Shown here: piece by piece, positions 1 to 20,969 of the stretch
How the letters are laid out: each line of letters opens with the position of its first letter
How positions within the stretch are numbered: the stretch's first letter is position 1
From: Flavobacteriales bacterium
GTDB taxonomy: Bacteria > Bacteroidota > Bacteroidia > NS11-12g > UBA955
DNA length: 64,000 bases
Direction of reading: 5' to 3'
NCBI GenBank assembly: GCA_002737705.1
Contig: NSIM01000005.1
Location: forward strand, 10,623 to 74,622
The notes under the pieces: generated by a model
Told to the model about the DNA's origin: nothing
The model's database searches: none
What the model saw: only the letters and a program-made list of their open reading frames with translations
Position numbers and translations under genes: made by a program

Positions 1-47
1 TGCAATCATGAAAATTATTTGATTGGAATGTAGTGTTGTCCCCAAAT

Positions 48-782: not shown

Positions 783-784
783 CG

Positions 785-1789
785 TTATAACTCTAACGGA
801 CCTTTTTCAGTGAACATGATACAATCGATTTTTGTACTCGCCGCACCGTTCGATGGATTCGCTAAGTGCAACATGCTAACCATGACCAAAGAATTGGGAT
901 TATGTCGGCTATTGCCATTGTTGCTGGCAGGAACGCCATTCACGAGGTGAATCATATCGCTGTATTTAAACGAAACCAATTTCCAACCTTCCCATGTAAT
1001 ACGAAGCTCACTGTCGTATTGGTCGTCGTTGGCCGGATCAAACTTCCCATTGGCATTGTCGTCTTCGCGGAACTGAAATAACACTCTACTTTCATTGGTA
1101 TTGGGTTTCCCGTAAATCAGGCAATTGAAGTAAACGTCTTCGCCCACACTACTTAATGGATAGGTGGTTTTTCCATAGGCCGATGCTGGGAAATCAATCA
1201 TACCGATAAGCCAATCCCAGTTCACCGTTCCGGCCATATTCAGATAATTGCTACCTTCTACATTGAATTGATCGTTGTGAATTTTGAAATCCATGCCACC
1301 TCCGGTTTGAATAAACGTGGTCCATTTGGTGTTCATGCCTGACTCAAAGTTGGCAACCACAAAACCCGAAGGGTTGCGGAGTCCAGTTATCCCGATTGTG
1401 ACATTAAAAGTATCGGTTACACCTTTTACCAGCAAAGTCGCCACGCAGGGTTCGTTTTTGAACATTGGAAAAAGAGTGGTGCTGCCATTCCATGTCGCCG
1501 TTGACGCATCGATGATTCTACTTTTCCCGGTGATAAATTTTTGTGCACCAGAATTACTGCCTTTGATTCGGATGGTCCAATCGCAGAGTTTGGTGAACTT
1601 GGCGGTGAATCCTACAGTCTCCGATTTGGAAAAGTCTACTGAAGATTTGTTGGCTTGGAAGGGTTGTAACATGCCGAATTGACCGTTGAGATCGCTGAGG
1701 CTAGGCCCGTCGAAGGAACTGTTGTCTCGCTTACAGCTTGATGCGAGCAAGGTGGCGGCAATCACGAGGGTAAGAATTTGTTTTTTCAT
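785..1789 (-). CDS. surface lipoprotein; SusE/F-like glycan-binding candidate
   Basis: The signal peptide MKKQILTLVIAATLLASSC has a lipobox Cys. It lies 10 nt downstream of the beta-barrel gene stop, in the same operon. Confidence 0.45.
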   Translation of the reverse strand: MKKQILTLVIAATLLASSCKRDNSSFDGPSLSDLNGQFGMLQPFQANKSSVDFSKSETVGFTAKFTKLCDWTIRIKGSNSGAQKFITGKSRIIDASTATWNGSTTLFPMFKNEPCVATLLVKGVTDTFNVTIGITGLRNPSGFVVANFESGMNTKWTTFIQTGGGMDFKIHNDQFNVEGSNYLNMAGTVNWDWLIGMIDFPASAYGKTTYPLSSVGEDVYFNCLIYGKPNTNESRVLFQFREDDNANGKFDPANDDQYDSELRITWEGWKLVSFKYSDMIHLVNGVPASNNGNSRHNPNSLVMVSMLHLANPSNGAASTKIDCIMFTEKGPLEL

Positions 1790-1798
1790 CGCTAGGGA

Positions 1799-3529
1799 TT
1801 AAAAGGTCATGTTATAAACAACCATCCACTGGTTGATTTTGTAGTTGTTGAAGGCGTGAATTTTGTCTTGATAATTCGATTGTTGGTAAAGCGCAGCCAA
1901 GTAGGCTTTTTCACCAAATCGGAAGCGAATGCCCGCGGCAGAAACCGTTTGATTCAAATTGCCATTGTATTTGCTGAAATCGATGACTTCGGTAAAGCCG
2001 TTGCGATCCGATAACAAATCATTTCCCTTGCCCTGAAGCGCGGTGTAGCCAATCATCAAGTCCATGCTAGGCAGTAGTTCAAATTCGGCACCCATTCCGG
2101 TTTGGAAAGAGGTGAGGTCAACAGATTCGAAGGCGAATTGACCTGCTCTTTGTGTGTTTTGGTAGCAGGCGGAAGCCGATAATTTGGCAACGCGATCCCA
2201 ATGAAAGTATTTTCCAAGGTTGGCGCCCAGTTGAAGGCGGGTCATCATAAACGATTTCAGCGCTGAGGTGCCTTGTCCGCGAATTTCTTTGAGTTGATGG
2301 TGGCTAAATTCTGACTGAATCACCTCATTCTTACTGTTGTATTTTCCTTTAAGGTATAAACCCTGTCGGTTAAAAGTAGCCTGTCCGTATGGCAATACAT
2401 TGTTAATCAACGGATTGTAGGCCATGAGTTTTGGGTTGATGCCGGTGCGGTACAATAGGCTATTGCCCGTGATATCGCCAAAATTCAGCGGTCGATCTGC
2501 TTGGGTTTGCTTATATCGGTTAAAGAAATTGGATTGGGCATTGTAGTCGACGCGTTTGCTTTGCGCTCCTGGGCTGCGGAAATCAGGACCCACATTCAAA
2601 TATCCCAATTCAGCTTCCCATTGTTTGTTTTCTGGCGAAAGGGTAATGGTGGGATTCATGAAGTAATCGGTGAGTGTAGGCGCGGTTGTATCGATGGTAT
2701 AATGGTAACGTGAATTTCCAAATTCGCCTTGAAGTTGGGCATTGAGTTTCCCGATTTTGTTGTTGTATCGGAAGGTTATGGTATTGACGATATTACTAAA
2801 AACGTTGGTATCCAAAGCAGTTCCTTTCACATCAAACAGGGCAGCCAGATTATAGGCCAAACTCAAATGATTGCTTTGGATTAAATCAACGGTGGTTCCG
2901 CCAAACAATCGGTCTTGGACGTTGCCGAAATTGGTGGCGTTCATTCGTGTGAGGTAGGCGTTGACATTGAGTTCTTTGACAAATTTGATGAACTGTAAAC
3001 CCCAATCCAACGACAAGCCCTGTTGTCGCCAAGTATTTGATTTGTAGAAGGTTTCATAATTTACGATATCGCGCTGTAGCTGAAAAACACCCGGTTGGCC
3101 GATCAACTGATCCTCGTTGTGGTTATATAGGGTAAAGGGGGTTTGCTTTAGGTTGATATCGCCCAATTGGTATCGAACTACATCGGCGATGATGCCTTTT
3201 ACCCAAAGCTGACGTACGTCGAAAGACACTCCGGCACCATAAAATCCACCGTATTTGTTGTTGATGCGAATCATCCCTAGAATTTCAGTGTTTTTGTTGG
3301 GGCTGATGTTAAATCCTAAATCAACGAGAGCATAACCCGCCACTACTTTTTTTGCTGTGGTTTTGTCGGGTATGGTATCGTTCACTTGAATATCGGCATT
3401 GGAGATGATCGAACGTGCTCCGCCTGTGAATAGGACTTTAGGACCAGTTTGGCCTTGGGTGATGTTGGCGATCAGGGTTGCGACTAGGGCAGTGGAAAGG
3501 GTATATAATCGGTTCATGGATTGTTGCAT
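1799..3529 (-). CDS. outer-membrane beta-barrel protein; putative porin, possibly of the Bacteroidota-specific ~600-aa family
   Basis: 576 aa with an N-terminal signal peptide and alternating amphipathic beta-strand patterning. The C-terminus is ...YNMTF, and a terminal Phe is typical of outer-membrane barrels. There is no TonB plug and no lipobox. Its start overlaps the upstream gene's stop by 1 nt. Confidence 0.5.
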   Translation of the reverse strand: MQQSMNRLYTLSTALVATLIANITQGQTGPKVLFTGGARSIISNADIQVNDTIPDKTTAKKVVAGYALVDLGFNISPNKNTEILGMIRINNKYGGFYGAGVSFDVRQLWVKGIIADVVRYQLGDINLKQTPFTLYNHNEDQLIGQPGVFQLQRDIVNYETFYKSNTWRQQGLSLDWGLQFIKFVKELNVNAYLTRMNATNFGNVQDRLFGGTTVDLIQSNHLSLAYNLAALFDVKGTALDTNVFSNIVNTITFRYNNKIGKLNAQLQGEFGNSRYHYTIDTTAPTLTDYFMNPTITLSPENKQWEAELGYLNVGPDFRSPGAQSKRVDYNAQSNFFNRYKQTQADRPLNFGDITGNSLLYRTGINPKLMAYNPLINNVLPYGQATFNRQGLYLKGKYNSKNEVIQSEFSHHQLKEIRGQGTSALKSFMMTRLQLGANLGKYFHWDRVAKLSASACYQNTQRAGQFAFESVDLTSFQTGMGAEFELLPSMDLMIGYTALQGKGNDLLSDRNGFTEVIDFSKYNGNLNQTVSAAGIRFRFGEKAYLAALYQQSNYQDKIHAFNNYKINQWMVVYNMTF

Positions 3530-5394
3530 TAGAAGAAAATTTTGATTTCAACGGTGGTTTCCCAGCCTTTGTATTGGTCTTTGCTGAAGCTTCGGTCTTG
3601 GTAATTCATCCATCGCTGACGGATATAAAGGCCTGCGCCTTTACTCATTTCTATGTCAAAGCCGGTGGCCAAGCCCCATCCTTCCTGATTTCGAGGACGT
3701 CGGCTGATGGCATCTACTGTGGTGTTATAATTTGCGATGATTCGCTCCCAACCTACGTAATTGGCAAAGACAACTTTTGGAGAGAGATGGTAATAGGCTT
3801 CTAGCTGATGATAATAGGTTCTCAAATAGGCTTCTTCGGTGAATAAGGTAATTGCGGAACGCTTTTTTTGCACTGACGCGTAAGAGCCTAAGTAGGTGAT
3901 GAATAAATCTCTGTATGCAAGTCTGGTTTTGTATTTCGCATTCACTTCGATGTTGATGAAATACTTCTTATACAACGGAACACCAGTGGAGGTGCCGTCG
4001 GTAAGATTCACTGTTTCAAAGACGCCGCGATACACTTTTGTTAGATTTTGATACGGACCAACATTGGCCGGGAATCCCCATCGCCAAAAGCGAGATAGGG
4101 AGAGGTTGTTGACGGGGTGGGAGTAGGTGAGTTGGGAAGAGATATTTTCGATTTCGTTGGCGTTGGTATATCCGATGCTCGTTTTCAGTTTGCCGATTTC
4201 GAATTCTGTGTTTAATTCAATACCAGTTCTGTTGTTTGTGATTTGGCCTACAGGAACCATCGCACTAGAAAAAGGTACCAAAACGAGTTGGTCTGAGCTA
4301 CTAGAGCTGCTGACGTTGCCTTCGCGAATGGAAGAATTCCAGAATACGGATGAGTTATTCAAAACCCTTGGACTTACGCGGTAGTAACGAATTAAAAGGG
4401 GGATGCCTGTGGTGGTCTTGGGGAAGCTTAGTTTTAGGTCGATGGCTTCGCCCCATCCTTTGGCTAGGGTTGGACTGAAGTATCGTCCAGCACCCACCTC
4501 GCCGGAAATGGTTAATATGCGTTTTTTGATTTGGAATTCGGCAGTATGCATATTGAATCCAACCCCATGGGTAAGGAGGCTGTCTGAGTAGGTTTGGTTG
4601 TTAAACGTATTTAAACTGACATAATCGTTGCCAAATAATTTTTTCAATTTTCCGCCATAGGATTGATTAGGGAGGGGCGCCATTCCGCCGTTGAGCTGGG
4701 TTTTCCCAAACATAATAACCCCGGAAAGATTCTTGGGCATATCGTTGGCTTCAAGAATAATCCCTTGAAAGGCTTGACGTCCCCATCGGGTGTCTTGGTT
4801 TAGCGCGCCGTTGGTATAGAAGGTGTTATAGCGGTCGGCGACATTGCTTGTTTGGGGATCCCAAGGGTTTCTTTCGAAGATGGAATATCGATTGAAGCCG
4901 GGATTGGTATGGAAAGTAAATGGCGTGAGTGCGTACCAATTGATACCTCCCGCAATTACGTTGAGGCTTCCTTTTTGGAAATCATGGGTTCCAGTTAAGC
5001 TGACGCCCAAGTTTAGCCCTTTTATATTTTCCGCTTGACCAGCGCCGGTCATTGGGGTCCACAAATAAAAATCGGTTGAAAATCTTGTGCTAGGGGTGAT
5101 GCTTCCGCCCATGTTTAGCATGAGTTGTGGGATTTGAGCATCGTCGCCGACGAAAATGTGGGTTGGGGTTTTGGCTTGGTCAATATAGCTACCCCGGTTA
5201 AACATATCTTTCGAATTTTGCAGATATCGCACATTGGCAATAAAACGGTAGTAGCCTGAAATGGTAAATCTTTCCAACTTTTCCGGGGCTTGTTTTGGAT
5301 AAACGCCAAGAGGGTAAATTGTATTTGTGATTTGCGCCACAGCGTTTGTCGTGATAATTCCCCAAAATGCGATTGTAAGTAAATATCTTTTCAT
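3529..5394 (-). CDS. outer-membrane beta-barrel protein; putative porin, paralogous in architecture to the neighbour
   Basis: 621 aa with signal peptide MKRYLLTIAFWGIITTNAVAQ. The C-terminus is ...EIKIFF. No plug domain is present. It starts 5 nt after the GH stop. Confidence 0.5.
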   Translation of the reverse strand: MKRYLLTIAFWGIITTNAVAQITNTIYPLGVYPKQAPEKLERFTISGYYRFIANVRYLQNSKDMFNRGSYIDQAKTPTHIFVGDDAQIPQLMLNMGGSITPSTRFSTDFYLWTPMTGAGQAENIKGLNLGVSLTGTHDFQKGSLNVIAGGINWYALTPFTFHTNPGFNRYSIFERNPWDPQTSNVADRYNTFYTNGALNQDTRWGRQAFQGIILEANDMPKNLSGVIMFGKTQLNGGMAPLPNQSYGGKLKKLFGNDYVSLNTFNNQTYSDSLLTHGVGFNMHTAEFQIKKRILTISGEVGAGRYFSPTLAKGWGEAIDLKLSFPKTTTGIPLLIRYYRVSPRVLNNSSVFWNSSIREGNVSSSSSSDQLVLVPFSSAMVPVGQITNNRTGIELNTEFEIGKLKTSIGYTNANEIENISSQLTYSHPVNNLSLSRFWRWGFPANVGPYQNLTKVYRGVFETVNLTDGTSTGVPLYKKYFINIEVNAKYKTRLAYRDLFITYLGSYASVQKKRSAITLFTEEAYLRTYYHQLEAYYHLSPKVVFANYVGWERIIANYNTTVDAISRRPRNQEGWGLATGFDIEMSKGAGLYIRQRWMNYQDRSFSKDQYKGWETTVEIKIFF

Positions 5395-5398
5395 GGGC

Positions 5399-6748
5399 TT
5401 ATGGATTAAAACTGTCCATGGTGAATTTTTTTACGCGGACCGATTTGGGTTGGGTAGAGTTTGCGCTTGCATCGACATAAAAAGGGTAGTTGGCGTAAGC
5501 GATTTTGTTTTGATATTCGATATTTACAAACAGTCGGTAAGCCCCTTCTTCATTGGGCGCTTTGAACTGTATGCGTTTTGATTTGCCTTTTTTGATCAGA
5601 CCCGGAATTTCGGTGGCCTCGTTTTCTGCATCACCCCCGGCTTTTTTGTCGTTGCTTTCGGCCAAAATTTTCCAACTACAATGCACATTATGAGTGTCGT
5701 TGGGGGTTTGATTGTATTGAATCAAATAGGCATCGGCGAAGGCTTGGTTGATCGAATTCGCGGGCACATGAAGTCCGCTATAAGCGTTTTTCCCGTTGAC
5801 GAGCAGATTCGTAATGCTGGGAGTTGATGTCGTTGGGCTCTGACTGCTCCAAGCAATTTGCAGCGCATCAATGGCTTGCGTGGGCTTGCCATCTTTGGTG
5901 AAAAGGCCATACCAGGTAAGTGTATATTCCTGTTTTTGTCCCCATAAAAACACATACGACCCTATGCAATCTTGGGGATTTGCTGCTATATAGTTTGTGT
6001 ATCTTTTATTGTAGACTTCTGCTTTTTCGAGGCTACTTTGTTCAATGGCAGCGCCCCATGGCGTAGTGGGTGATTCCCAGTGACCATTGGGTCCCCATTC
6101 GGTGATCATGTATGGTCCTGTCCACCCCCATTTCCTGATATTGTAGGGTACGTTGCCGATATCGCCGTAAGTGTTCACGCAGTATACATCGATGTCTGGG
6201 GCTTTTTGTTTGATGAGCGCCACTTCCATCGAGTCCAAGCCGGCAGTTACCGTAGAGGTTGGGTGGTTGGGGTCTACTTGATGCGCATATTTTGCGATGT
6301 CTTGAATTGCATCCCAAACGCGGGTATTGGAATAAAACAGATCGACTTCATTTCCGATGCCCCACATGAGCAAAGCGGGGTGATTTTTGAATCGATCGAT
6401 AACGCTTTTGAAATGATTGAGTTGCTTTTCTACTTTGGCTTTGTTGCTATAATCAAATCCATGTCGTTCGTGCTGAAGCCACATTCCCAGCATCACAGTG
6501 AGTCCGTGTTTTTGCGCATTGTCGAGGATGGTTTGGGCATCGTCGATTCCCCATGTTCTGATGGAATTTCCTCCAATATTCACGACGACGTCTAGGTGGG
6601 TATCGCCACCGGCGCCTTTGACGTAGTAGATTTTCCCATCGCGCAGCATTTCCCAACCTGTAGGGGTTTGGCGCACCTCGACTTTTACAGCTTGGGCGCT
6701 AGATAGATTGAAAAAAATTAGGGAAAGGAGGGTAAGAAAGTACTTCAA
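5399..6748 (-). CDS. secreted clan GH-A (TIM-barrel) glycoside hydrolase; family undetermined (GH2-TIM, GH5 or GH53-like)
   Basis: Signal peptide present. Motifs: GGNSIRTWG (beta-1 Arg), LMWGIGNEVD (acid/base Glu in an NE motif), and MITEWGP (nucleophile Glu about 80 residues later). A C-terminal ~100-aa extra domain follows. Confidence 0.7.
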   Translation of the reverse strand: MKYFLTLLSLIFFNLSSAQAVKVEVRQTPTGWEMLRDGKIYYVKGAGGDTHLDVVVNIGGNSIRTWGIDDAQTILDNAQKHGLTVMLGMWLQHERHGFDYSNKAKVEKQLNHFKSVIDRFKNHPALLMWGIGNEVDLFYSNTRVWDAIQDIAKYAHQVDPNHPTSTVTAGLDSMEVALIKQKAPDIDVYCVNTYGDIGNVPYNIRKWGWTGPYMITEWGPNGHWESPTTPWGAAIEQSSLEKAEVYNKRYTNYIAANPQDCIGSYVFLWGQKQEYTLTWYGLFTKDGKPTQAIDALQIAWSSQSPTTSTPSITNLLVNGKNAYSGLHVPANSINQAFADAYLIQYNQTPNDTHNVHCSWKILAESNDKKAGGDAENEATEIPGLIKKGKSKRIQFKAPNEEGAYRLFVNIEYQNKIAYANYPFYVDASANSTQPKSVRVKKFTMDSFNP

Positions 6749-6758
6749 GTGTTAAAAA

Positions 6759-7451
6759 TTAAAGGTCAAATGCGAAGTAGCTGCTGGAAAGTTTGCTATA
6801 CTTTTTCGCGTTGTACTTGAACAATTTTGCGGGTCTGTGGGTGACACTGGATTGTTTTAGTCCGGTGTCTGTAATGAAATCCATGGAAAGGATTTTTTTT
6901 CTAAAGTTTCTGACGTCGAATACAGTTTCTAGTATCGATTCGTAGAGCTTTTGTAATTCGGTGAGCGTAAAGTATTTTGGCAGCAGCTCGAAGCCAATGG
7001 GCTGACGACGGATTTTGGCTTTCAGCTGGTCTTTGGCAAAAAGGAGAATTTCATTGTGGTCGAATGGCAAGTCTGGAATTTCGGAGATGGGAAACCAGGC
7101 GGCTTCTTCAGCCCATGAGGATGGGTGAATGTTATAATCTTCAATTTTAATCAAAGCAAAATAGGCAACGGTAAAAACGCGGCCAAATGGATGTCGATCT
7201 ACCTTCCCAAACGTATGAATTTGCTCCATGTAAATTTTATCCAATCCGGTGAGATCTTGCAGTACTTTTTCGGCAGACGAGGACAAGTCGTTGTCTAAAC
7301 TGATTAAATCACCAGGAAGTGCCCAACAGTTCCTGTAGGGGTCGGCACCGCGATAAATGAGCAATACTTTAAGTCCCGATTGGTCGAACCCAAAGACTAC
7401 GTTATCTACGGAGACAGCCGCTTTAAAAAAGGGAATAAGTTTTGGATCCAT
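6759..7451 (-). CDS. NrtR/AraR-family transcriptional regulator (Nudix-like domain plus C-terminal winged HTH)
   Basis: 230 aa. It shares a Nudix-like fold pattern and the C-terminal motifs (DHNEIL, LQKLYESILE, DVRNFRKK) with the paralog at 20199..20969. It lies 10 nt upstream of the GH gene on the same strand. Confidence 0.65.
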   Translation of the reverse strand: MDPKLIPFFKAAVSVDNVVFGFDQSGLKVLLIYRGADPYRNCWALPGDLISLDNDLSSSAEKVLQDLTGLDKIYMEQIHTFGKVDRHPFGRVFTVAYFALIKIEDYNIHPSSWAEEAAWFPISEIPDLPFDHNEILLFAKDQLKAKIRRQPIGFELLPKYFTLTELQKLYESILETVFDVRNFRKKILSMDFITDTGLKQSSVTHRPAKLFKYNAKKYSKLSSSYFAFDL

Positions 7452-7544
7452 GGGATATTTCGCAATGTCCTAGGCGAATATATTGTAAAATATACAATAA
7501 TACAAATGCGAACTCTGAATGGAGGATTTTTTACTTATTTATGG

Positions 7545-7578
7545 GCCAAAGTTCAACCAATTTCGGTTGAACTTTGGC
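7545..7578. promoter_or_regulatory. perfect 14-bp inverted repeat with a 6-nt spacer; operator or RNA hairpin candidate
   Basis: GCCAAAGTTCAACC aatttc GGTTGAACTTTGGC. It is about 95 nt 5' of the NrtR-like start on the minus strand. No U-tract follows on either strand, so it is not a classical intrinsic terminator. Confidence 0.4.
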
Positions 7579-7782
7579 GGAGATGTGAATACAGCTGAGC
7601 ATCGTAGACTAAATTAGTAAAAAACTAAGTTAGTACTATTGATATGGAAAAAACAAAAGAAATCATTGATTATTTAAAATTTTCAAACAAATTAAGGGTT
7701 TTGCGCTGTTTGTTTATTCGCAGCTTGCTCAAATTCAGGACAAACGGAGCAAATAGCATCAACCGACGACAGTGTCGCCTGG

Positions 7783-7845
7783 GAAGAAACAACTGAAACA
7801 GTTGATGATCCAGAAGAAACAACCATTGAAACAGTTGATGATCCA
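7783..7845 (+). repeat. imperfect tandem duplication (30 + 33 bp) encoding acidic EETTETVDDP / EETTIETVDDP units
   Basis: gaagaaacaac-tgaaacagttgatgatcca is repeated with a 3-bp insertion. It lies in a start-less reading frame that begins with a lipobox-like LFAACSNSG. Confidence 0.5.
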
Positions 7846-8137
7846 GGTTCGGACATTTCAACCGCTACTGCAAATGGGGGTATTGTAGTCTAAATCTGAT
7901 GTTTTTTCAATAATTGGCTGACTTTCCTTTGAAAGCAAGACTAGCACTATGTAAGTTCAAAAAAAACTGAGTAATCAGTTTTAATAAAAAACTGGCGGCA
8001 TAGATACAAATTCAATGATGCAATGTTTACTTTGTTCAAACCTGAAGTTGAAGCAAAAGTGACCTTGGCGTTCCGAAATGATAAAGGCATAATGCATATT
8101 CCTGAAGATACAATGAGTTAATCAATATGCCGACTAT

Positions 8138-8452
8138 TTGATTATTTTTGAAGATAACAATGCAATGATACTGACTGCAAGAATCACCAAACCTCCGCAA
8201 AATGATTCAAGAATTCATGGTGGAGATTCAGACTCGTTTTTAGCATGTTCTATTATTTTCAAGTACAACAAGTATCCTGTGGAAGGCCGAAAATTTGGCA
8301 CTCAAGGAATTTATTGGGAAATTGATGGTTTAGGATTCGTCATTACATCAAACGAAAGTGAAACAGTTTTTTCTAATTCAGAATTGAATACATATACTAT
8401 TTCCAATAATTTCGCCATGTGGCATGCCGCAGGTATTGCACTATTTAACTAA
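8138..8452 (+). CDS. hypothetical protein
   Basis: 104-aa ORF in an otherwise gene-poor interval next to a transposase remnant. No recognisable motifs. Confidence 0.3.
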   Translation: MIIFEDNNAMILTARITKPPQNDSRIHGGDSDSFLACSIIFKYNKYPVEGRKFGTQGIYWEIDGLGFVITSNESETVFSNSELNTYTISNNFAMWHAAGIALFN

Positions 8453-8510
8453 GAACTTACTAATGGCAAAGAAAAATAAAGAAGACACCATTAAGCCTAT
8501 TGAATTGATA

Positions 8511-8699
8511 TTATGGGATGCAGCCAATAAAGTATGAGGCAGCGTCGAACCAGCGCATCAACCCTTTCTCTCCAAGCTGGTCAAACTCATTTTTCCATTT
8601 ATAAAACGCACTCTTTTTTACCCCAAAAAATTCACACGCCACATTGTTTTTACCACGCTCTTTGGCATAGTGTAATACCCTTAAGTAGTTTGTAGGCAT
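8511..8699 (-). mobile_element. truncated transposase N-terminus (HTH / leucine-zipper region, IS481 or IS3-like); pseudogene remnant
   Basis: 62 aa, ...RVLHYAKERGKNNVACEFFGVKKSAFYKWKNEFDQLGEKGL..., resembles the N-terminal HTH of IS transposases. It stops after 62 codons. There is no catalytic domain and no terminal inverted repeats. Confidence 0.5.
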
Positions 8700-8877
8700 C
8701 CCCAGAATTTCGGATTTGCGGTAGTTCGGTTTCTTTGTGCGGGTAACTGATGGATAGTTCCCGTAATTCGAGTAATTGCTTGTCTTTCATCCAAGAGAAA
8801 AGAGAAAAATCCCACAGCATAAGCCATGGGATAATTCTACACTTTTTTTATAAGACGATTTTTTACATGTTTAGCAA

Positions 8878-9519
8878 CTATTTTAGAACCAACTTATAAT
8901 CGCCGCCTTGGTTGGGTGGATACTTACCAAATTCCTCCAAGGTTATCCAGACATTACCACTCGGGTCTTGATTGTATTCTTTTTCGGTGCGGTAGATTTT
9001 GCCATTATAACCAATGTATCCGTGTCGTGTCGGGGCAATAAAAGTTGGATCCTTAGGTATGGGTAGCGGGTAATATTCTCCAACCTTTTTGATGCCTCGT
9101 TTACCCAATCCAACTCCCAATTTTAGACCAAACTGGTCTGCTGCATCTTGGTCTTGTGTTGCCACAATTCCGTTGCCAAAGATAAATTGAAATTCATCGA
9201 AAGAGGAAATATTGCCATCGTCAAAGAAAGTCAATATAGAAGGTTGATCCCCAGTGGGTTCTCCCCAATTGCCACAAAGACTATCAGGAAATAAGTTGGG
9301 GTATTCTGCTTTCGGGGTTTCTAAGACACCTTTGCCGTCTATGGATACTGCTTTTTCTGATTTAATCCCATTTTTAACGGGTGCTTTAACAGTGGTAACT
9401 GCATTCCTCTGCTGACCAAAAACAAATGACGGATTGCCAAAAGCAAACAGAAACAAAATAAATAACTGTGCGAAATGTGGGCCGAAAGGCCGTTGAAGGA
9501 TGATTGATTTGTTTTTCAT
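8878..9519 (-). CDS. secreted hypothetical protein
   Basis: 213 aa with an N-terminal signal peptide. A copy of the 74-bp repeat lies immediately 5' of it. Confidence 0.5.
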   Translation of the reverse strand: MKNKSIILQRPFGPHFAQLFILFLFAFGNPSFVFGQQRNAVTTVKAPVKNGIKSEKAVSIDGKGVLETPKAEYPNLFPDSLCGNWGEPTGDQPSILTFFDDGNISSFDEFQFIFGNGIVATQDQDAADQFGLKLGVGLGKRGIKKVGEYYPLPIPKDPTFIAPTRHGYIGYNGKIYRTEKEYNQDPSGNVWITLEEFGKYPPNQGGDYKLVLK

Positions 9520-9533
9520 TACACTATGTATTA

Positions 9534-9607
9534 AACAATAAAACTACCTCCTACGGTCAGTGATTTAAAATTACTGCTGAGAGGTGGTATTGTTCATTTC
9601 ATAGTGC
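9534..9607. repeat. 74-bp perfect direct repeat, copy 1
   Basis: Identical over 74 bp to 11524..11597. It sits 15 nt 5' of the start of gene 8878..9519. Confidence 0.9.
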
Positions 9608-9670
9608 TTGATATTATGTGTAACGGAAAAATATATGCCAATATTTTATTTAATTGTTAAACTATTACCA

Positions 9671-11521
9671 CTAGTTAAAAGAATAGTATTTGGTCAGCCA
9701 TTTATCATACACACAGAATTGTATATCTCCCAATGGAAACTCCTTGTTTGGATATTTCTTAAATTCTTCTATACTGCATTTTAACTGCCCGCGTAAGTAC
9801 ATAACATGATTCTCGATGGTAATATCTGAAAAAGCACATTGGTAGTAAACTGCTTCCTCGCCGGAAATGCGCTCTTGAGAAATGGTTAATTCGGGTATTC
9901 TACCATAGAAATTACCAATGGCGGCTTTCCATAAGTCTGTGTTTTTGAACACTGTATCCATTCCTGGTTGGAAGTTAAATGTTTGCTTGCTTTGTTGCGC
10001 AAGTATAAAATCATAAAATTGTGGCAGATAGGGTTGATGGATTCGATTGAGAATTGTTTTGGTGGATAAAATCATTTTTGTTCTGTCTGACTTGGTCATT
10101 TTCACAAATTCGAACTCAATATCATCATTCACAAACCTGACATTGCTTCGCGGTATTGTTGTGTGCACTGAAATTTGGTTCACACCCGGCGAGAGTTCGA
10201 TATTTTTGGCATGATTCATTTCTACCCCATTGATTAATATTTTACAATCGGATACACCCTCAGAATACACGTAAAAAGTTAAGATATTGTCTTGGGTAAT
10301 GTTTATATTGTTCATTGGACCCAAATACTGTGTGTTAAGACCCATGTGTTTGGTCACCGGTGATGTAAAACAATGGCGCATCTTATTGAAATACAATTGT
10401 GTAAAACGGAATAATTCATTCTTTGGAAAATGGTCTTCCGCAAAAATTTTTGGATCTCCAAGAAAATACTTGTCAAACCACATGAATTCTCCCTCTGTAT
10501 TATTGGAATCATCGGGGCGATCAATCCATGTCACATCCAATAACCTCCATTGATGATTGATTTTAACCAAATTCCAAGCGTGATTGGTTCCTATTTTTTC
10601 AATGTGTCTTTGCCAACTATTGTTGTCGGCATACCCAACAATAGTGATGCAAGGAAGGTTTATCCCTATACAGAATTGCTCAATAAAATCGGCATACCCC
10701 TGACACACTGTTCTTTTTTGATGGAACACCTCATCTGGCTTGATTGGGCCGCTGAGGTCATATCTGAAATTTCTAACCATCCATCTGCACAACGCTAAAA
10801 TTCTCAATGAGTCATCAGATATACCGGTGGTCAGGTCTATTGCCAATTTTTTAATTGCCTTGAGGTCTTCGGGATTTAAATTCTGGTAATATTTGGGTTG
10901 CATCCTCACTTGATACATACTATCGGCACATTTTCCCGCCCTCATCAAAAAATTGGGGTCATATTGAACAATGGCATTTAAAAAACGACTGTTATGACGC
11001 ACAGGTTGAACAACATAATTATTCTTTATCAACTGGCGATGAATATACTTTTGATTTACCACCATAGAGCGATGACTCACAGCATTTTGCGTGGCCAATT
11101 GCCCACTATCGGTGATTAATTTTAACTTGTACCGGCCATTGATGTCTGTAATTTGACCATCACGATAAATAAATTTTAGTTTATCAAATGGCCTAAATCC
11201 ATTTTTGAGTCCGTAGCTATTAAAATGTATTATAGTCTTTAAGGTGTTTTTTGTGAACTTAAAAGACCCACTATCCATGGAATTGTTATAAGAACTCCTT
11301 TTAATTAAGGCATAATGCTGGTTGGGATACAAAATCAGAAAGTAACCACTTTTTGATGATTTGTAATAAAAATATACTTCTTTTTTTACCAGTTCTTCAA
11401 ATTGTAAAGTCTGAGAATTGACATTCCCATAGATACAAAATGGTAAGAGGATGATTAATGGTGAACATAAAATCCAACTTTTAAAATGGGCAAATGATTG
11501 GCTAAACACGGTTCTAAACAA
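9671..11521 (-). CDS. secreted transglutaminase-like cysteine protease superfamily protein
   Basis: The catalytic triad motifs appear in order: CQGYADF (Cys), NHAWNLV (His), LDVTWID (Asp). A signal-like N-terminus is present. The start is probably the TTG at 11521. Confidence 0.7.
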   Translation of the reverse strand: MFRTVFSQSFAHFKSWILCSPLIILLPFCIYGNVNSQTLQFEELVKKEVYFYYKSSKSGYFLILYPNQHYALIKRSSYNNSMDSGSFKFTKNTLKTIIHFNSYGLKNGFRPFDKLKFIYRDGQITDINGRYKLKLITDSGQLATQNAVSHRSMVVNQKYIHRQLIKNNYVVQPVRHNSRFLNAIVQYDPNFLMRAGKCADSMYQVRMQPKYYQNLNPEDLKAIKKLAIDLTTGISDDSLRILALCRWMVRNFRYDLSGPIKPDEVFHQKRTVCQGYADFIEQFCIGINLPCITIVGYADNNSWQRHIEKIGTNHAWNLVKINHQWRLLDVTWIDRPDDSNNTEGEFMWFDKYFLGDPKIFAEDHFPKNELFRFTQLYFNKMRHCFTSPVTKHMGLNTQYLGPMNNINITQDNILTFYVYSEGVSDCKILINGVEMNHAKNIELSPGVNQISVHTTIPRSNVRFVNDDIEFEFVKMTKSDRTKMILSTKTILNRIHQPYLPQFYDFILAQQSKQTFNFQPGMDTVFKNTDLWKAAIGNFYGRIPELTISQERISGEEAVYYQCAFSDITIENHVMYLRGQLKCSIEEFKKYPNKEFPLGDIQFCVYDKWLTKYYSFN

Positions 11522-11523
11522 TT

Positions 11524-11597
11524 AACAATAAAACTACCTCCTACGGTCAGTGATTTAAAATTACTGCTGAGAGGTGGTATTGTTCATTTCATAGTGC
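11524..11597. repeat. 74-bp perfect direct repeat, copy 2
   Basis: Identical to 9534..9607. It lies immediately 5' of the transglutaminase-like gene start. Confidence 0.9.
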
Positions 11598-11916
11598 CAG
11601 CGTTTAACCCATAACGAAAACACACAAGTAAATATTTGAAATCAAATAATATAAAACGAGCCTCACAAAAAAATATGAACCATTGCCTGTCGTACTTCAG
11701 AGTTTCGTAGACACCAAAATTAACTATTGAAAGTAAATTTTAATGCTTCGTAGGCTATTTTTACTTCAAAAGTTATCGGAGAATTTATAGTCCTTTAGCG
11801 TTTCTATGTAAGATGCGCCCCCATTTGCAAATCTTGAATATGCCGATGGTGTTTTGATTGAAATTGACGACCATTATAAGTTTGTATTATATTAATTCTA
11901 AATATAAACATCCACA

Positions 11917-13359
11917 TTATTTTTTTGTCGGTATTGATTCATTGTGCGGAATAAGATCCTTGCAAAGGATGGTGAGTGCTTGATTGAGTGCAATGCAATC
12001 GGCGGCGGCGTTACTTAGGTGAGGTGTTACTCTCACTCCACGAACAATCGGATGGTTGATGCCCACAGTAAAAATAGTAAACTTTGTCATGAGTATTGAA
12101 GAGAGTTCTGTGGGGGTATAACCGTCTATTGCGGCAGTAGCAATGGCGCCGCCCCGTGAAAAAGGAAATAACGGTGATTGTAGTTTAAAATTATCAAAGT
12201 TGCTTAAGTCGTGAACCGCATTCATATTTTGTTGGTATTCGGGGTCACTGAATATACCCAGACTTTTACCAAAGGTTTCCAAGGCCACTTTGTTTCCTAT
12301 CCAAAGCAACTTCAGATAAAGCAGTCGATTGTATTTTGAAGTTGCACCAAGTAGTTGATGAAATGCTATGGCTTTGGAGATGGTTTGTAGTGAATTAATG
12401 GGTCGGGTACCTTGGTGTTCATACTTGCGAATATTGTCTTTTTCCATACCAATATCGCCCATGAGTGGCCAAATTTCTCGAATGAGACTTCTTTTTACAT
12501 ATAAAAAACCTACTCCAATGGGATTGCATAGCCATTTGTGTAGGCTGCCGCCGATGATATCGGCGCCTGCGTTCGACAATTCACTTAGATTCATGGGCAT
12601 GTGCGCTAAACTGTGAGCAGCATCTACAACTACCCACAGATTGGGTTGCTTTTGTTTGGCTTCTCGAACAATGGCTTGCACCGGTATGAGATGTCCATTG
12701 AGATTAATCATGTGGGTCACATGCAACATTTTTGTTCTCGCCGTAATTTGTTGCACATATGCTTGGATAATGTCTTGATCGGATGCAGGGTAAAGGGATA
12801 TTTGTGCCACTTTTATCACAATGCCCCAACGTGCCGCAGCTTGTTGAAAAGCTTCAACCATGGATCCATAGTCTTGATCGCCAATGATAACTTCGTCGCC
12901 CAACTGCCAGTGTGTACCCATGATGATGGTATTGAGGCTTTCGGTTGTGTTGCGGGTGAAGGCCACTTCCTCGACATCCCAACCCTGAAATCCGGCAAAT
13001 ATATTGCGAGCATCCTCAATTGCTTTACTCTGTTCCGAGCGCATGAAGAAGCTTGACTGAGTATTAATGCGGGATTCTGCCTCGCCGTGATAGTCTAAAG
13101 TTGCAATGGGTTGGTGGCTAAAATAGCCATTTTCTAAATTGATAAATCCTTGGGGCCGATTAAAATTTTTTGCTACCACACCCCAATATGATTCACTGTG
13201 AGGCAACGATTCAACGGTTTTTTTGGGTATAAAAAACCCCATCCCCTTATTGGATTTTTTTTGTATAGGTTTTGGTTTAGAAAACAATGATTGTGCGGGA
13301 AGTACAAAGCTTACCAAAGCAGTGCTGCCGAAGGCTTGAATGAACTGTTTGCGTTTCAC
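11917..13359 (-). CDS. class V aminotransferase-fold PLP-dependent enzyme with an N-terminal export signal
   Basis: The SLHKW motif is consistent with a PLP-binding Lys. Fold-type I patterns are present. The N-terminus MKRKQFIQAFGSTALVSFVLPAQSLFS looks like a Tat or Sec signal. Confidence 0.65.
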   Translation of the reverse strand: MKRKQFIQAFGSTALVSFVLPAQSLFSKPKPIQKKSNKGMGFFIPKKTVESLPHSESYWGVVAKNFNRPQGFINLENGYFSHQPIATLDYHGEAESRINTQSSFFMRSEQSKAIEDARNIFAGFQGWDVEEVAFTRNTTESLNTIIMGTHWQLGDEVIIGDQDYGSMVEAFQQAAARWGIVIKVAQISLYPASDQDIIQAYVQQITARTKMLHVTHMINLNGHLIPVQAIVREAKQKQPNLWVVVDAAHSLAHMPMNLSELSNAGADIIGGSLHKWLCNPIGVGFLYVKRSLIREIWPLMGDIGMEKDNIRKYEHQGTRPINSLQTISKAIAFHQLLGATSKYNRLLYLKLLWIGNKVALETFGKSLGIFSDPEYQQNMNAVHDLSNFDNFKLQSPLFPFSRGGAIATAAIDGYTPTELSSILMTKFTIFTVGINHPIVRGVRVTPHLSNAAADCIALNQALTILCKDLIPHNESIPTKK

Positions 13360-13657
13360 ACAGGCAAGATAACGAAATTTAAGGTTTTATTGGGTTTTGA
13401 TATTGCGCCATCGTCCCGCAAATCGATAGACCGCAGGATTGAATTTCCTTGGAGCCCACTGCATACTTTTTCTGCAATAAGAGCCACTTCAGTGACGCAA
13501 AACACCCCTTTAACATTGGTGTAAGTTGTAACGAACCGAAAAGAATAATACCCCAAACAATAAAATGGTGATTTTGCAATTGCGCTGCATAATCGAAAGA
13601 TTTCAATTTCAATTTTAATTGTAAATATGGTATTGAGTTCCTAATTTCGTGCTACAC

Positions 13658-14149
13658 ATGAAAAAAATATTTCTCAAGTTGTTTGCCTATGCTCCACTTG
13701 TTTTTGCAGCATTCACTTTATTTACATTGGGCGCTTGTAAAAAAGAAAAATCCCCTGTAGAAGTTCCGACCACATCGGAGCTGATTTGTGGCAATTATTG
13801 GCAATTATATTCTATGCCCATCGAACCTCCCTTGGATTTAATTGGAGGGGTTAAGCTGACCGACTACTTCACGCAAACCTTGAATGACTGTGATAAAGAC
13901 AACTACGTCAAGTACAGGGATAACAACAATCTAAAGACGTATGTTAATTATGCGGGTATTTTAAAATGCGATCCTTTGGATAAAGATTCTACCATTGGGG
14001 TCTGGTCACTGAGCGCTGACGGTAAAATAATTGAACAAGACGGCGAAAAATTAAAATTGATTTTGATTGACAACAAAAACATGCATATTCAGATGGATAA
14101 TTTTATGCTGAACTCGAGCATTACCTTTAAATTCAAAAAAAAGATTTAA
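13658..14149 (+). CDS. hypothetical lipoprotein
   Basis: MKKIFLKLFAYAPLVFAAFTLFTLGAC is a signal peptide with a lipobox Cys. The ORF extends to 13649 with an alternative Met. Confidence 0.5.
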   Translation: MKKIFLKLFAYAPLVFAAFTLFTLGACKKEKSPVEVPTTSELICGNYWQLYSMPIEPPLDLIGGVKLTDYFTQTLNDCDKDNYVKYRDNNNLKTYVNYAGILKCDPLDKDSTIGVWSLSADGKIIEQDGEKLKLILIDNKNMHIQMDNFMLNSSITFKFKKKI

Positions 14150-14258
14150 GTCAAAAAAATAATCGAAAAAAATCGATCAGACTGATTCGGTCACTGGGTT
14201 AGGATTGCCTCACTGCGCTCGGCTTTCCGCTACGGTTTGGTCCTGCAATAGAAAACCA

Positions 14259-14284
14259 CAACGCTGCCGCGTTGCCTTTTTTTG
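14259..14284 (+). terminator. intrinsic terminator hairpin inside repeat unit 1
   Basis: CAACGC-tgcc-GCGTTG followed by CCTTTTTTTG. It lies downstream of the lipoprotein gene ending at 14149. Confidence 0.5.
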
Positions 14285-14396
14285 CGCCCATCTCTCACTC
14301 GCCTTCTTTGAAGGCTGAATCGATTCGGGCACTGGGTTAGGATTGCCTCACTGCGCTCGGCTTTCCGCTACGGTTTGGTCCTGCAATAGAAAACCA

Positions 14397-14421
14397 CAAC
14401 GCTACCGCGTTGCCTTTTTTT
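14397..14421 (+). terminator. intrinsic terminator hairpin inside repeat unit 2
   Basis: CAACGC-tacc-GCGTTG followed by CCTTTTTTTG. Confidence 0.5.
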
Positions 14422-14512
14422 GCGCCCATCTCTCACTCGCCTTCTTTGAAGGCTGAATCGATTCGGGCACAAAAAAAGCCTCAACTTTCGTTCAGGCCTT
14501 TGCTCTTGATCG

Positions 14513-14586
14513 TGCACTTGTAGGGATTCGAACCCCAAACCTTCTGATCCGTAGTCAGATGCTCTATCCAATTGAGCTACAAATGC
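14513..14586 (-). tRNA. tRNA-Arg (anticodon ACG)
   Basis: Cloverleaf read by hand on the minus strand. Acceptor GCATTTG / CAAGTGC. D-stem GCTC / GAGC. Anticodon stem TCTGA / TCAGA with loop CTACGGA. T-loop GGTTCGAATCC. CCA is not encoded. Confidence 0.8.
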
Positions 14587-20198: not shown

Positions 20199-20969
20199 TC
20201 AATTAAACACAGTAATAGAACCCTCCATTTTAAGATTTACTATGCTAGAATATAATTCCTCGGAGCTGCTTCCATTAAAAACATAAAACCGAGCCGGCTT
20301 ATTGCTCACTCCGTATTGTTTTTCAGTCAAGGCCCGAACAAGTCCAGAATGTAACATTTTCCTTCTAAAATTGCGTTTATCAACTTCTCGTTCTAAAATT
20401 ATTTCGTATAGTGACTGCAAATCCCCCATTGTAAATTTAAGGGGTAGTAATTTGAAAGCAATCGGGTAAATCTGAATCATTTCTCGTAATGCCAACAATG
20501 CTGCCTCAAAAATCTCGTTGTGATCAAAGACCAAATCCTTAATTTCGGAAATTGGAACCCACTTTGCCTCTTTGGTAAATGAGCCAGGCTTAATCTCAAC
20601 TTTACTTGTATCAATCAACGCCAAATAGGCTAACGTTATTACCCGTGCATCGGGTTCTTGACGAACACCTTCTAACCAACTGCGATCTTTGGCTTTTGCA
20701 ATCCGCAAAGGGTCTCCAAAGGCTTTAAATTGATGCAGAAAAATCCCAGACAATCCTGTGAGTTCTCTGAGTATTCGGTCGGCAGCCTCATCTAGATTTT
20801 CATTGTCCCGAACTAAATCTCCCGGAAGGCCAAAACGATTATCAGCGTTTTGGAAGGTACTTTTTGCACCGTTTCTATTGATTAACAACAAACACAAAGC
20901 ATTGTCATTTAATCCAAAAATTGAACAATCTACAGAAACATGGGGATTTAAAGATGGGCTCAAAGACAT
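20199..20969 (-). CDS. NrtR/AraR-family Nudix-like transcriptional regulator, paralog 2
   Basis: 256 aa. It shares LPGDL, ELTGL, FDHNEI, LQSLYEIILE and DKRNFRRK with 6759..7451. It is divergent from the kinase and acyltransferase operon. Confidence 0.65.
   Translation of the reverse strand: MSLSPSLNPHVSVDCSIFGLNDNALCLLLINRNGAKSTFQNADNRFGLPGDLVRDNENLDEAADRILRELTGLSGIFLHQFKAFGDPLRIAKAKDRSWLEGVRQEPDARVITLAYLALIDTSKVEIKPGSFTKEAKWVPISEIKDLVFDHNEIFEAALLALREMIQIYPIAFKLLPLKFTMGDLQSLYEIILEREVDKRNFRRKMLHSGLVRALTEKQYGVSNKPARFYVFNGSSSEELYSSIVNLKMEGSITVFN

Follow-up and report, generated by a model that had tools for sequence, protein, structure and literature searches.

The 74-nt sequence that occurs twice in the window (the whole stretch of 64,000 nucleotides that was analysed) is, with high probability, the middle of a conserved promoter-plus-leader module of ~150 nt from an uncultured, mostly freshwater Bacteroidota clade, to which a recent recombination was added in the window. 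Sequence comparison identified the 74-mer as the core of a ~107-nt 5' leader, strongly conserved and previously undescribed. The whole explanation, combining a gene-specific leader module, a gating RNA hairpin and the recent homogenisation of the window copies, is reasonably probable.

The exact direct repeats were located on the minus strand at 9534-9607 (copy 1) and 11524-11597 (copy 2), with a start-to-start spacing of 1,990 bp, as described in the initial annotation, and both stood 5' of minus-strand ORFs. There were no further copies with up to 3 mismatches within the 64-kb window (chance expectation 0), and no degenerate copies were found there by blastn with a word size of 7. Copy 1, the central part of the complete leader of a 213-aa gene, ended 14 nt before the ATG (9519) of this ORF (8878-9519). 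Copy 2, which forms the middle of a leader that is 3'-truncated or divergent and precedes a transglutaminase-like gene, stopped 2 nt short of TTG 11521, where the 616-aa ORF (9671-11521) could start at the earliest, and 14 nt short of the in-frame GTG 11509. The distance of 10-15 nt to the start codon previously given for both copies was correct for copy 1, but applied to copy 2 only with the GTG start and not with TTG.

The repeat pair is not an assembly artefact, a possibility left open by the initial annotation, because both repeats were present in an independent MAG and contigs of two unrelated read sets broke inside the repeat. The MAG (GCA_009693665.1, locus L050; 99.28% identity to the window over 7.6 kb) contained both exact 74-mers, likewise 1,990 bp apart. 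Logan contig L001 (SRR12053441; 1,976 nt, 5 SNPs) covered window positions 9578-11553, with both ends 30 nt inside the repeat, which we interpret as the graph-based assembly breaking at the repeat, with k assumed to be 31. Contigs L051 (SRR12053441) and L052 (SRR8561391) began 30 nt inside the repeat preceding the 213-aa gene.

The full leader as modelled (107 positions, 9511-9617, minus strand; alignment A1) spanned from ~10 nt before helix P1 through codon 3 of the 213-aa gene. Covariance model R1 matched copy 1 with 122.2 bits (E 3e-23) and copy 2 with 82.8 bits, located no additional copies, either in the window or in the 344 kb of loci scanned, and was strongly directional: 120-130 bits on the coding strand vs. 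~25 bits on the opposite strand. The leader was found before three gene families at ~35 metagenome loci, in a single orientation throughout; the core-pattern scan of metagenomes retrieved 37 loci, 33 of them true, and the distance from the leader core to the invariant ATGAAAAAC start was 31-33 nt wherever the contig extended that far. Five loci (L005, L008, L009, L010 and L012) were reached by protein homology alone (proteins 44-79% identical), and the element lay directly before the start in all of them. Alignment A1 comprised 28 distinct leaders with a mean column identity of 88%, columns 34-45 and 59-67 being invariant partly by construction (the scan required them) and independently tested only by the five protein-reached loci. 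The leader was kept, at the same distance to the start codon, before homologues whose proteins were only 40-50% identical, and between the window and L005 it was 96% identical vs. about 85-90% for the gene. These comparisons showed that the leader module was more conserved than the coding sequences following it, in agreement with the strong selection on a cis element at both gene starts that had been suggested from the repeats alone; the fixed distance to gene starts and the single orientation ran counter to the dispersed REP-like repeat that had been put forward as the opposite outcome.

No family in Rfam 15 matched the leader up to E 10 on a 191-nt query, and there was no relevant match on 4 kb; the only gathering-level Rfam match within the window was a tRNA-Arg. 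A 20-mer from the repeat gave 0 matches in genome and metagenome contigs, this 20-mer covering a G/A polymorphic position and the source genome not being among the representatives. Viral contigs contained 0 matches to the degenerate core pattern, and no plasmid was matched by the leader in a blastn search. The literature search yielded background on Shine-Dalgarno (SD)-less translation and sigma-54, and no description of the leader element.

The three leader-linked families were homologues of the 213-aa protein, 599-aa transglutaminase-like proteins and a 184-aa protein. The 175-225-aa family, with no assigned function, was often first in an operon with an L,D-transpeptidase and a metallopeptidase. 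In the window, this family was represented by the 213-aa gene (8878-9519, minus strand; MKNK... family), which had no Pfam or NCBIfam match and whose AlphaFold model (11-sequence alignment) reached a mean pLDDT of 41. NCBIfam returned nothing for the small proteins, and for the two large ones only a match far below threshold to a transglutaminase-related lipoprotein family; exact look-ups of the window 213-aa protein, the window aminotransferase protein and P0007 gave no record. The transglutaminase-like gene (9671-11521, minus strand) encoded a secreted protein of 616 aa from TTG or 612 aa from GTG, with a Pfam Transglut_core domain (PF01841, E 3e-9 in the 616-aa ORF), and a strain variant showed 3 synonymous and 2 conservative changes. 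The 599-aa homologues with the leader elsewhere were 31% identical to the window protein (E ~1e-60), which had the same long N-terminal region, with its VFS motif aligned to theirs; the transglutaminase-like homologues of a third clade (P0002 type) lacked the leader. IS3-type transposases and an integrase were encoded near some leader loci, and a 62-aa HTH fragment was located at 8511-8699 of the window.

Upstream of the leader, many relatives carried a box resembling the sigma-54 (RpoN) -24/-12 promoter consensus TGGCAC-N5-TTGC (PMC2831329): 20 of the 33 distinct upstream regions contained TGG[CT]A[CT]-N5-TTG[CA], in which the spacer varied in sequence, and the distance from the box to the end of the invariant CTATG in the leader was 28 nt in nearly all cases. 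Both window copies differed, since the GG/-24 and GC/-12 signature of a sigma-54-dependent promoter was found at neither. Upstream of copy 1 (type B), a promoter-like box, TGGCATATATTTTTCC (9625-9640, minus strand), occupied the position of the relatives' box and read TGGCAT-N5-TTTC, with the -12 GC replaced by TC. The upstream flank of copy 2 (type A; 11598-11688, minus strand), orthologous to the flank before the single leader of L005, had neither the GG nor the GC dinucleotide. The L010-like leaders and L035 also lacked the box, and no gene for rpoN or an enhancer-binding protein was found in the window or among the scanned ORFs of loci L021 and L033. Two further candidates were discarded: a Bacteroidetes sigma-A -33/-7 promoter inside the leader (no TAnnTTTG seen by eye), and an upstream activator site in a 230-nt conserved block before the leaders of 175-aa genes (part of the block is the 3' end of an adjacent 150-aa ORF).

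The leader is able to form a hairpin of ~85 nt. The apical loop of this hairpin is variable, its internal loops are strongly conserved, and its basal helix stops 2 nt short of the AUG. The predicted basal helix P1 is formed by CACUAUG (9600-9606, minus strand) and CAUAGUG (9522-9528, minus strand), the latter lying outside the 74-nt repeat and present in copy 1 only. The hairpin core consists of ACCUCUCAGCAGU, the apical loop and ACUGACCGUAGGAGGUAG (9544-9585, minus strand; the same core in copy 2 at 11534-11575), with helices CCUCU/(A|G)GAGG and CAGU/ACUG flanking the internal loop CAG/ACCGUA. Over 23 pairs, 94.4% of cells were paired, vs. 34-53% when the partners were slid 1-3 columns; G-U cells numbered 24 on the coding strand vs. 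2 on the other strand, and indels and variation clustered in the apical and internal loops. In the structure prediction recommended in the initial annotation, single-sequence folds gave the same rod shape as this hairpin; RNAalifold itself predicted only the two inner helices. Compensatory double changes were seen in 0 pairs and the covariation score equalled the shuffled score, the leaders being very similar to each other; since there were no compensatory changes, it is the pairing potential and the G-U asymmetry that argue for an RNA structure. In copy 2, the divergent 3' flank (11502-11523, minus strand; candidate starts TTG, 11519-11521, and GTG, 11507-11509) lacked the 3' arm of P1, and 11502-11511 can pair with 11597-11607 as a substitute closing helix over the GUG. 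Copy 2 may not work like the canonical element, because the invariant 3' part of the leader is missing.

The initial annotation had taken the GGAGGT of the repeat for an SD-like sequence. This reading was abandoned: the motif lies 27 nt from the start (ATG for copy 1, GTG for copy 2), 25 of the 28 unique leaders have AGAGG(G/T) instead, and GGAGG was limited to the window's own clade and L035. Being unconserved (usually AGAGGG) and 27 nt from the start, GGAGG is no SD site; GGAGG/AGAGG is one strand of the conserved helix CCUCU/AGAGG. Bacteroidia ribosomes do not read SD sequences, with the exception of the very strong SD of rpsU (PMC7797042, PMC9976891). A conserved leader peptide (ATG AAC AAT ACC ACC TCT CAG CAG TAA) was also rejected, its ATG being missing in the L010-like leaders.

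Regarding the history of the repeat pair, a 1,990-bp unit composed of the transglutaminase gene and one leader copy (9608-11597, minus strand) was absent from the relative L005, which corresponded to the window minus exactly this unit and had a single hybrid leader copy, with an upstream flank like copy 2 and a downstream flank like copy 1 (window 11688-11521 aligned to L005 9821-9990 at 88.9%). Paralogous leaders on one contig elsewhere were 89-90.5% identical, vs. 100% for the window pair, and identity in the flanks of the window copies dropped at once to shuffle level (52% vs. 50%, and 46.5% vs. 47%). The identity above that of equivalent leaders, the random-level flanks and the lack of the unit in L005 together indicate that the window copies were recently made identical by recombination at the leader. 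The very recent duplication initially proposed was partly supported, by the excess identity and the abrupt flank drop. The idea of a cassette bounded by direct repeats was supported by L005, with its hybrid copy and exactly this unit missing. A foreign origin of the transglutaminase gene was not supported, because homologues elsewhere at 31% identity carry the same leader, so that gene family and leader also co-occur outside the window. Homologous recombination between paralogous leaders would have replaced exactly 74 nt in a separate recent event, through gene conversion or, alternatively, one crossover involving a circular or sister copy, and the repeat pair could delete the transglutaminase unit, giving the L005 state.

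Two other origins were considered for the repeats. They could be the mere scar of a recent insertion, in which the transglutaminase gene and one leader copy, on a circular or tandem DNA, entered the resident leader of the 213-aa gene in Campbell fashion, duplicating 74 nt and leaving copy 2 with no regulatory role. The single hybrid copy of L005 without the exact 1,990-bp unit, the fall from 100% identity to shuffle level at both repeat ends, the lack of the invariant 3' leader part and of the ATGAAAAAC start in copy 2, and the leaderless P0002-type homologues would all fit such a scar, which is nevertheless somewhat unlikely: several other genomes have leader-linked 599-aa transglutaminase-like genes, the window protein shares the long N-terminal region and the VFS register with them, and a deletion in the L005 lineage accounts for the same data. 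The segment just 5' of copy 1 is a homologue of the family promoter region, which argues for two full modules rather than a module and an insert. The other origin, in which the repeat would be a dispersed element of the REP/MITE type, an attC-like integron site or a product of misassembly, is extremely improbable. As in integrons, an imperfect palindrome of attC-like size (60-140 nt) lies between ORFs, and a single-gene, repeat-bounded unit is present or absent between relatives; the transposases and the integrase near some loci would also suit a mobile element. However, every true instance whose contig reaches the gene stands at a fixed distance before one start-codon context, only 2 copies exist in 64 kb, and the independent MAG and the contig ends of two read sets contradict an artefact. 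No short duplicated sequence was found beside either copy as a MITE target-site duplication, and in the relatives the sequences on both sides were conserved together with the element. No integron core sites (RYYYAAC/GTTRRRY; R''/R') were detected by a regular-expression check of both strands of both copies, and no integron integrase by a Pfam scan of most window ORFs of at least 150 aa, overlapping alternate-frame ORFs being left out. Integron cassettes are promoterless and have attC at the 3' end, whereas the leader carries a promoter, is tied to the downstream start codon and is conserved in sequence, not in structure alone.

Other modes of action were also weighed against the RNA hairpin. 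The conserved imperfect palindrome could act at the DNA level, where a transcription factor would use it as an operator or an architectural site immediately after the promoter; the palindromic sequence, the lack of compensatory changes and the very high primary-sequence conservation, unpaired positions included, are compatible with this. A DNA site is distinctly unlikely, given that conservation continues unbroken for >100 nt into the first codons, much longer than a usual operator, that the palindrome arms are 47-71 nt apart, and that both the model scores of the two strands (120-130 vs. ~25 bits) and the G-U-compatible changes (24 to 2) favour the coding strand. The leader could also be mainly a transcription attenuator, in which the CCUCU...AGAGG(GUG) hairpin followed by UUUUAUUGUUU ends most transcripts, an antiterminator factor or an alternative fold being needed for read-through. 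Although the hairpin and the following U-rich tract were kept in all members, and copy 1 lies 63 nt past the transglutaminase stop codon, where a terminator is expected, this is very unlikely as the main function: the terminator scan called only the evident terminator at 8809-8832 (a short, perfect, GC-rich stem unlike that of the leader) and left the leader uncalled, the leader stem is interrupted by a 3x6 internal loop and capped by an 11-nt apical loop, and the U-tract is paired with an A-rich 5' strand in the best folds. Taken as a whole, the leader does not fit the pattern of an intrinsic terminator, a short GC-rich stem with a small loop and a T-run directly behind it. Finally, the SD-like motif could drive a 4-codon upstream ORF to which translation of the main gene is coupled, starting at a UUG 8 nt after GGAGG/AGAGG and stopping at a UAG 4 nt before the main start. 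Both window copies and most members contain UUG UUU AAU NNN UAG, with the same start spacing in copy 2, but such coupling is highly improbable: the L010-like leaders (before 176-180-aa homologues) have no UUG, the frame is shifted by 1-nt indels in L035, L044 and the L010-like group, any frame yields a "plausible" outcome, so that the pattern has no test value, and SD sequences other than that of rpsU are unread by Bacteroidia ribosomes (PMC7797042, PMC9976891).

In the preferred model, the transcript would start ~10 nt upstream of the hairpin, in many relatives at the sigma-54-type promoter, and the folded leader would act in cis on the mRNA, most likely keeping the SD-less start closed until it is released by some factor or condition; in addition, transcripts may terminate early at the U-rich 3' side. 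This translation-gating RNA hairpin is put forward tentatively, with a chance somewhat below even. If the leader acts in cis, the genes behind it would therefore be co-regulated. mRNA structure around the start codon tunes initiation in SD-less Bacteroidia (PMC6847099), and the structure-gated SD-less starts described for Flavobacterium johnsoniae (PMC6847099, PMC7797042) belong to the same phylum and resemble the predicted leader, whose helix ends 2 nt before the AUG. They differ in being a general trend rather than a dedicated conserved leader, here predicted from sequence, and position -3 is G here, A being the favoured base. A broader proposal, unlikely as it stands, is that the leader represents a new riboregulator class, in which the internal loop (CAG opposite ACCGUA) and the anti-SD-like/SD-like helix would serve as a binding site for a small molecule, a protein or a sub-population of ribosomes, with the basal helix gating the SD-less start and switching on a set of secreted cell-envelope enzymes. 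This set would comprise the transglutaminase-like protease, the L,D-transpeptidase and the metallopeptidase, and appears to be sigma-54-driven in many relatives. Because the module includes the first signal-peptide codons and recombines readily, the leader might also serve as a portable unit moving genes in and out of the set.

Among known systems, the Rfam "Cis-reg" leaders, including orphan riboswitch candidates and protein-binding leaders, are similar in their fixed position and orientation before a small recurring gene set, in a hairpin with variable apical and conserved internal loops, and in being more conserved than the genes behind them; the window leader differs in having no Rfam 15 match and no covariation seen, and its conserved block reaches into the promoter and the first three codons. 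Genes of the Mycoplasma vsp/vlp surface-protein families begin with an almost identical 5' UTR and signal-peptide start, which is also where they recombine. The window system is similar in that non-homologous mature proteins share a leader and first codons (MKN...), with indications of recombination inside the shared region, but differs in that no sign was found of phase variation, antigenic variation, tandem arrays or active site-specific recombinases.

For annotation, the perfect repeat described here would be a regulatory module, neither a mobile-element scar nor a mis-assembly. The window would be a clean natural example of how a shared leader homogenises paralogous control regions and mediates whole-gene gain and loss between close relatives. 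If the leader is a working riboregulator, it would mean that secreted enzymes and small proteins form a co-regulated set, not recognised before, in abundant freshwater Bacteroidota that are uncultured and, if true, would represent dedicated post-transcriptional control in a phylum without SD-led initiation.

Two exact 74-nt direct repeats were located at 9534-9607 (copy 1) and 11524-11597 (copy 2) of the window, with a start-to-start spacing of 1,990 bp, which confirms the initial annotation, and both exact copies were found again, at unchanged spacing, in an independent metagenome-assembled genome (GCA_009693665.1; 99.28% identity over 7.6 kb). No third copy with up to 3 mismatches was present in the 64 kb (none is expected by chance), and blastn at word size 7 detected no degenerate copies of the 74-mer. 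Copy 1 lies upstream of the minus-strand 213-aa ORF (8878-9519) and ends 14 nt before its ATG. Copy 2 lies upstream of a minus-strand 616-aa ORF containing a Transglut_core domain; 2 nt separate its end from the earliest start codon available to this ORF (TTG, 11521), and 14 nt separate it from an in-frame GTG (11509). The distance of 10-15 nt first proposed between repeat and start holds for copy 1, and for copy 2 only if counted to the GTG. A 1,976-nt Logan contig of SRR12053441, with 5 SNPs relative to the window, spans 9578-11553 and terminates 30 nt inside each repeat; contigs of SRR12053441 and SRR8561391 also begin 30 nt inside the repeat preceding the 213-aa gene. The ends of the 1,976-nt contig were read as an assembly-graph break at the repeat, assuming k=31. 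The repeat is real, and is not an assembly artefact. The 5 SNPs fall in the transglutaminase-like gene (3 synonymous, 2 conservative), which on this pattern appears to be under selective constraint.

The 213-aa protein has few homologues (12 matches). Flanking DNA was fetched for five of them (proteins 44-79% identical to that of the window), and in all five loci the element was directly 5' of the start codon. Scanning metagenomes with a pattern from the conserved core, ACCTCTCAGCAG-N9-20-CTGACCGTA, gave 37 loci, of which 4 lie in unrelated sequence and plainly match by chance; the remaining 33 hold 35 element instances, and the pattern had no match in viral contigs. Wherever the contig extends that far, an invariant ATGAAAAAC opens an ORF 31-33 nt after the core. 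The genes downstream at these metagenome loci belong to three families: homologues of the 213-aa protein (175-225 aa), 599-aa homologues of the window transglutaminase-like protein (~31% identity, E ~1e-60), and a 184-aa protein (locus L035) that has only its N-terminus in common with the 213-aa family. Three contigs (L024, L033 and JACCDW010717117, the last comprising L014 and L048) carry two copies, one each for the first two families. A covariance model made from 28 distinct leaders (the ~107-nt conserved 5' region around the repeat core) added no copy to those already known when run on 344 kb of fetched loci, and in the window it matched only the two known ones, scoring copy 1 at 122 bits and copy 2 at 83 bits. 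No Rfam family matched the element. On this evidence the element is a 5' module specific to these genes and no dispersed repeat, and the earlier suggestion of a shared 5'-UTR element is supported.

The 74-nt repeat is an imperfect palindrome, which for copy 1 extends past the repeat, CACTATG (9600-9606) pairing with CATAGTG (9522-9528) 2 nt short of the ATG; copy 2 has no CATAGTG 3' arm. The proposed coding-strand fold comprises helix P1 (CACUAUG/CAUAGUG), an internal loop, P2 (AACAAUA/UAUUGUU), P2b (CCUCU/AGAGG), an asymmetric internal loop (CAG opposite ACCGUA), P3 (CAGU/ACUG) and an apical loop of 11 nt, the most variable part of the fold. Mean column identity of the aligned leaders is 88%; columns 34-45 and 59-67 are invariant, in part because the metagenome pattern demanded them, and were independently confirmed by the five protein-reached loci. 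Standard pairs fill 94.4% of pair cells; shifting the partners by 1-3 columns lowers this share to 34-53%. None of the proposed pairs shows changes on both sides, the covariation score is the same as after shuffling, and RNAalifold on its own predicted P2b and P3 only. Where only one side of a pair has changed, 24 cells are G-U on the coding strand and 2 would be G-U on the opposite strand, an asymmetry that speaks mildly for an RNA of the mRNA strand. The rod shape was reproduced by single-sequence folds of several members. For copy 2 the flanks are predicted to supply a replacement helix, UUAAACGC.GG pairing with CC.GUGUUUAG over the GUG, which could be due to chance.

GGAGG, the 3' strand of P2b in the proposed fold, was confined to the window, L008 and L035; the corresponding motif is AGAGGG in 24 of the 28 leaders, AGAGTG in L033a and AGAGGT in L005. 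Since GGAGG is rare and lies 27 nt from the start codon, it is not a Shine-Dalgarno site, and the SD pairing first proposed is not supported as a ribosome-binding site; this agrees with the inability of Bacteroidia ribosomes to read SD sequences (PMC7797042, PMC9976891, PMC13000453). An SD-led mini-ORF is effectively excluded or very unlikely.

A box, TGG[CT]A[CT]-N5-TTG[CA], matching the sigma-54 -24/-12 consensus (PMC2831329), was present upstream of the leader in 20 of 33 distinct sequences, its end nearly always 28 nt before the end of the leader's invariant CTATG and its spacer differing by gene family (ACACT vs. AGGGT). From this position, transcription would start ~10 nt before P1. In the window, TGGCAT-N5-TTTC stands upstream of copy 1 (flank type B), and the flank upstream of copy 2 (type A) has neither the GG nor the GC; the box is also missing from L010-like leaders and L035. 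No gene for rpoN or an enhancer-binding protein was found in the window. In transglutaminase-type promoters (L013, L015, L019, L022, L026 and others), the sigma-54-like spacer together with the stretch that follows CGTTAT makes up a small inverted repeat, which appears to co-vary across loci (GGGT...ACCC, ATGGT...ACCAT).

Over these 74 nt, paralogous leaders elsewhere share 89-90.5% identity, vs. 100% for the window pair, and immediately outside the repeat the identity of the two copies falls to 52% upstream (shuffled, 50%) and 46.5% downstream (shuffled, 47%). Selection alone could not produce so sharp an edge, and recent recombination is therefore required. In the relative L005 (protein 72% identical), 9821-9990 aligned with window 11688-11521 and 9910-10696 with window 9610-8858: there is a single leader, flanked upstream as copy 2 is and downstream as copy 1 is, and exactly the 1,990-bp unit holding the transglutaminase gene is missing. 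Window and L005 thus differ by one crossover inside the leader, which may be a deletion in L005 or an insertion in the window lineage. L008 (79% identical) carries the type-B flank. The cassette suggested earlier is half borne out: the unit is gained or lost at the repeats, which themselves, however, are a regulatory leader and no cassette boundary. Two weak hints suggest that the transglutaminase gene once had its own leader, the centre of which has since been overwritten: the 3' flank of copy 2, AATTGTTTAG, is nearer to transglutaminase-type leaders (AATTCTTAG) than to 213-type leaders (AATACATAG), and the long N-terminal region of the window protein aligns with the MKNKVFS... of leader-linked homologues. 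The leader is absent from a third clade of transglutaminase-like homologues (P0002 type, 29-31% identical), whose signal peptide is ordinary.

The module as a whole is bordered by a class-V aminotransferase gene on one side and an HTH fragment on the other. Homology with L005 stops at ~11688 and ~8858, and similarity to L003, which is nearest to the window at the aminotransferase gene (89% nucleotide identity), breaks off at ~11703, where L003 has different genes; the module is thus in a variable region. IS3-type transposases are often near leader operons in other genomes, complete ones flanking them in L012 and L021, and an integrase is near L010. Downstream of the 213-aa gene, a minus-strand 62-aa HTH ORF (8511-8699; HTH_28/29, transposase-N-terminus-like) has no adjacent catalytic domain and includes a 49-nt match to L003 1245-1293. 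A canonical terminator-like hairpin (8809-8832, minus strand; 10-bp stem and T-run), the only such site called in 8500-12500, lies ~45 nt past the stop of the 213-aa gene. Many relatives, including L021 (region 25-10524), L009, L032 and L033, have the leader at the head of an operon that begins with the small-protein gene; its products are 175-aa, 177-aa and 162-aa proteins, a YkuD L,D-transpeptidase, another small protein of 159 aa and an M54-like metallopeptidase. Ahead of this operon in L021, L009 and L032 is a cluster of genes for caspase (Peptidase_C14), zinc-ribbon, CHASE2, SPFH/Band7-SHOCT, double-zinc-ribbon and PspC proteins.

The aminotransferase gene, single in the window, has two tandem paralogues in L003 (48-1265 and 1863-3308, ~71% DNA identity). 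A 138-nt unit in tandem (14184-14459; two copies, 99% identical) adjoins tRNA-Arg(ACG) (14512-14586, minus strand); both copies were matched in GCA_009693665.1 and L003 matched only at 1712-1817, directly upstream of its own aminotransferase gene, so the lipocalin-like gene (13649-14149) is interposed only in the window lineage. Two paralogous minus-strand NrtR-type Nudix/winged-helix regulators (6759-7451 and 20199-20969) lie 13 kb apart, the former adjoining a GH2-like gene cluster. The window, whose source is annotated as a Flavobacteriales MAG, otherwise looks like ordinary Bacteroidota chromosome, with GldD and proteins with type IX secretion C-terminal domains.

Non-homologous leader-linked proteins (window, loci L009-L048) share an unusual N-terminus: MKN(K/Q) and a long basic stretch holding (R/K)(R/K)PF(G/S), which resembles twin-arginine RRxF, then a hydrophobic core and an (S/G)QQ-type end. 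The motif reads QRPFG in the 213-aa protein, and both it and MKNK are absent from the window transglutaminase-like protein. Judged from these sequences, the leader module may also encode a specialised export signal.

We consider it highly probable that both repeats are copies of a conserved promoter-leader module specific to certain genes, and that recombination there explains both the perfect identity and the presence/absence polymorphism. A rival reading takes the repeats as a pure recombination scar, copy 2 being without function. An attC-like site (core sites are absent), a REP/MITE-type dispersed repeat (the window has no copies beyond the two, which are tied to gene starts) and an assembly artefact can in effect be excluded or are very unlikely.

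As to how the leader works, the most likely mechanism, proposed tentatively, is an mRNA hairpin that would close an SD-less translation start and would then be opened by some factor or condition; in Flavobacterium, mRNA structure near the start codon tunes initiation (PMC6847099). A DNA-level operator and a transcription attenuator are the rival readings. The element appears to be of a known kind, the conserved cis-regulatory leaders, of which it would be an undescribed member.
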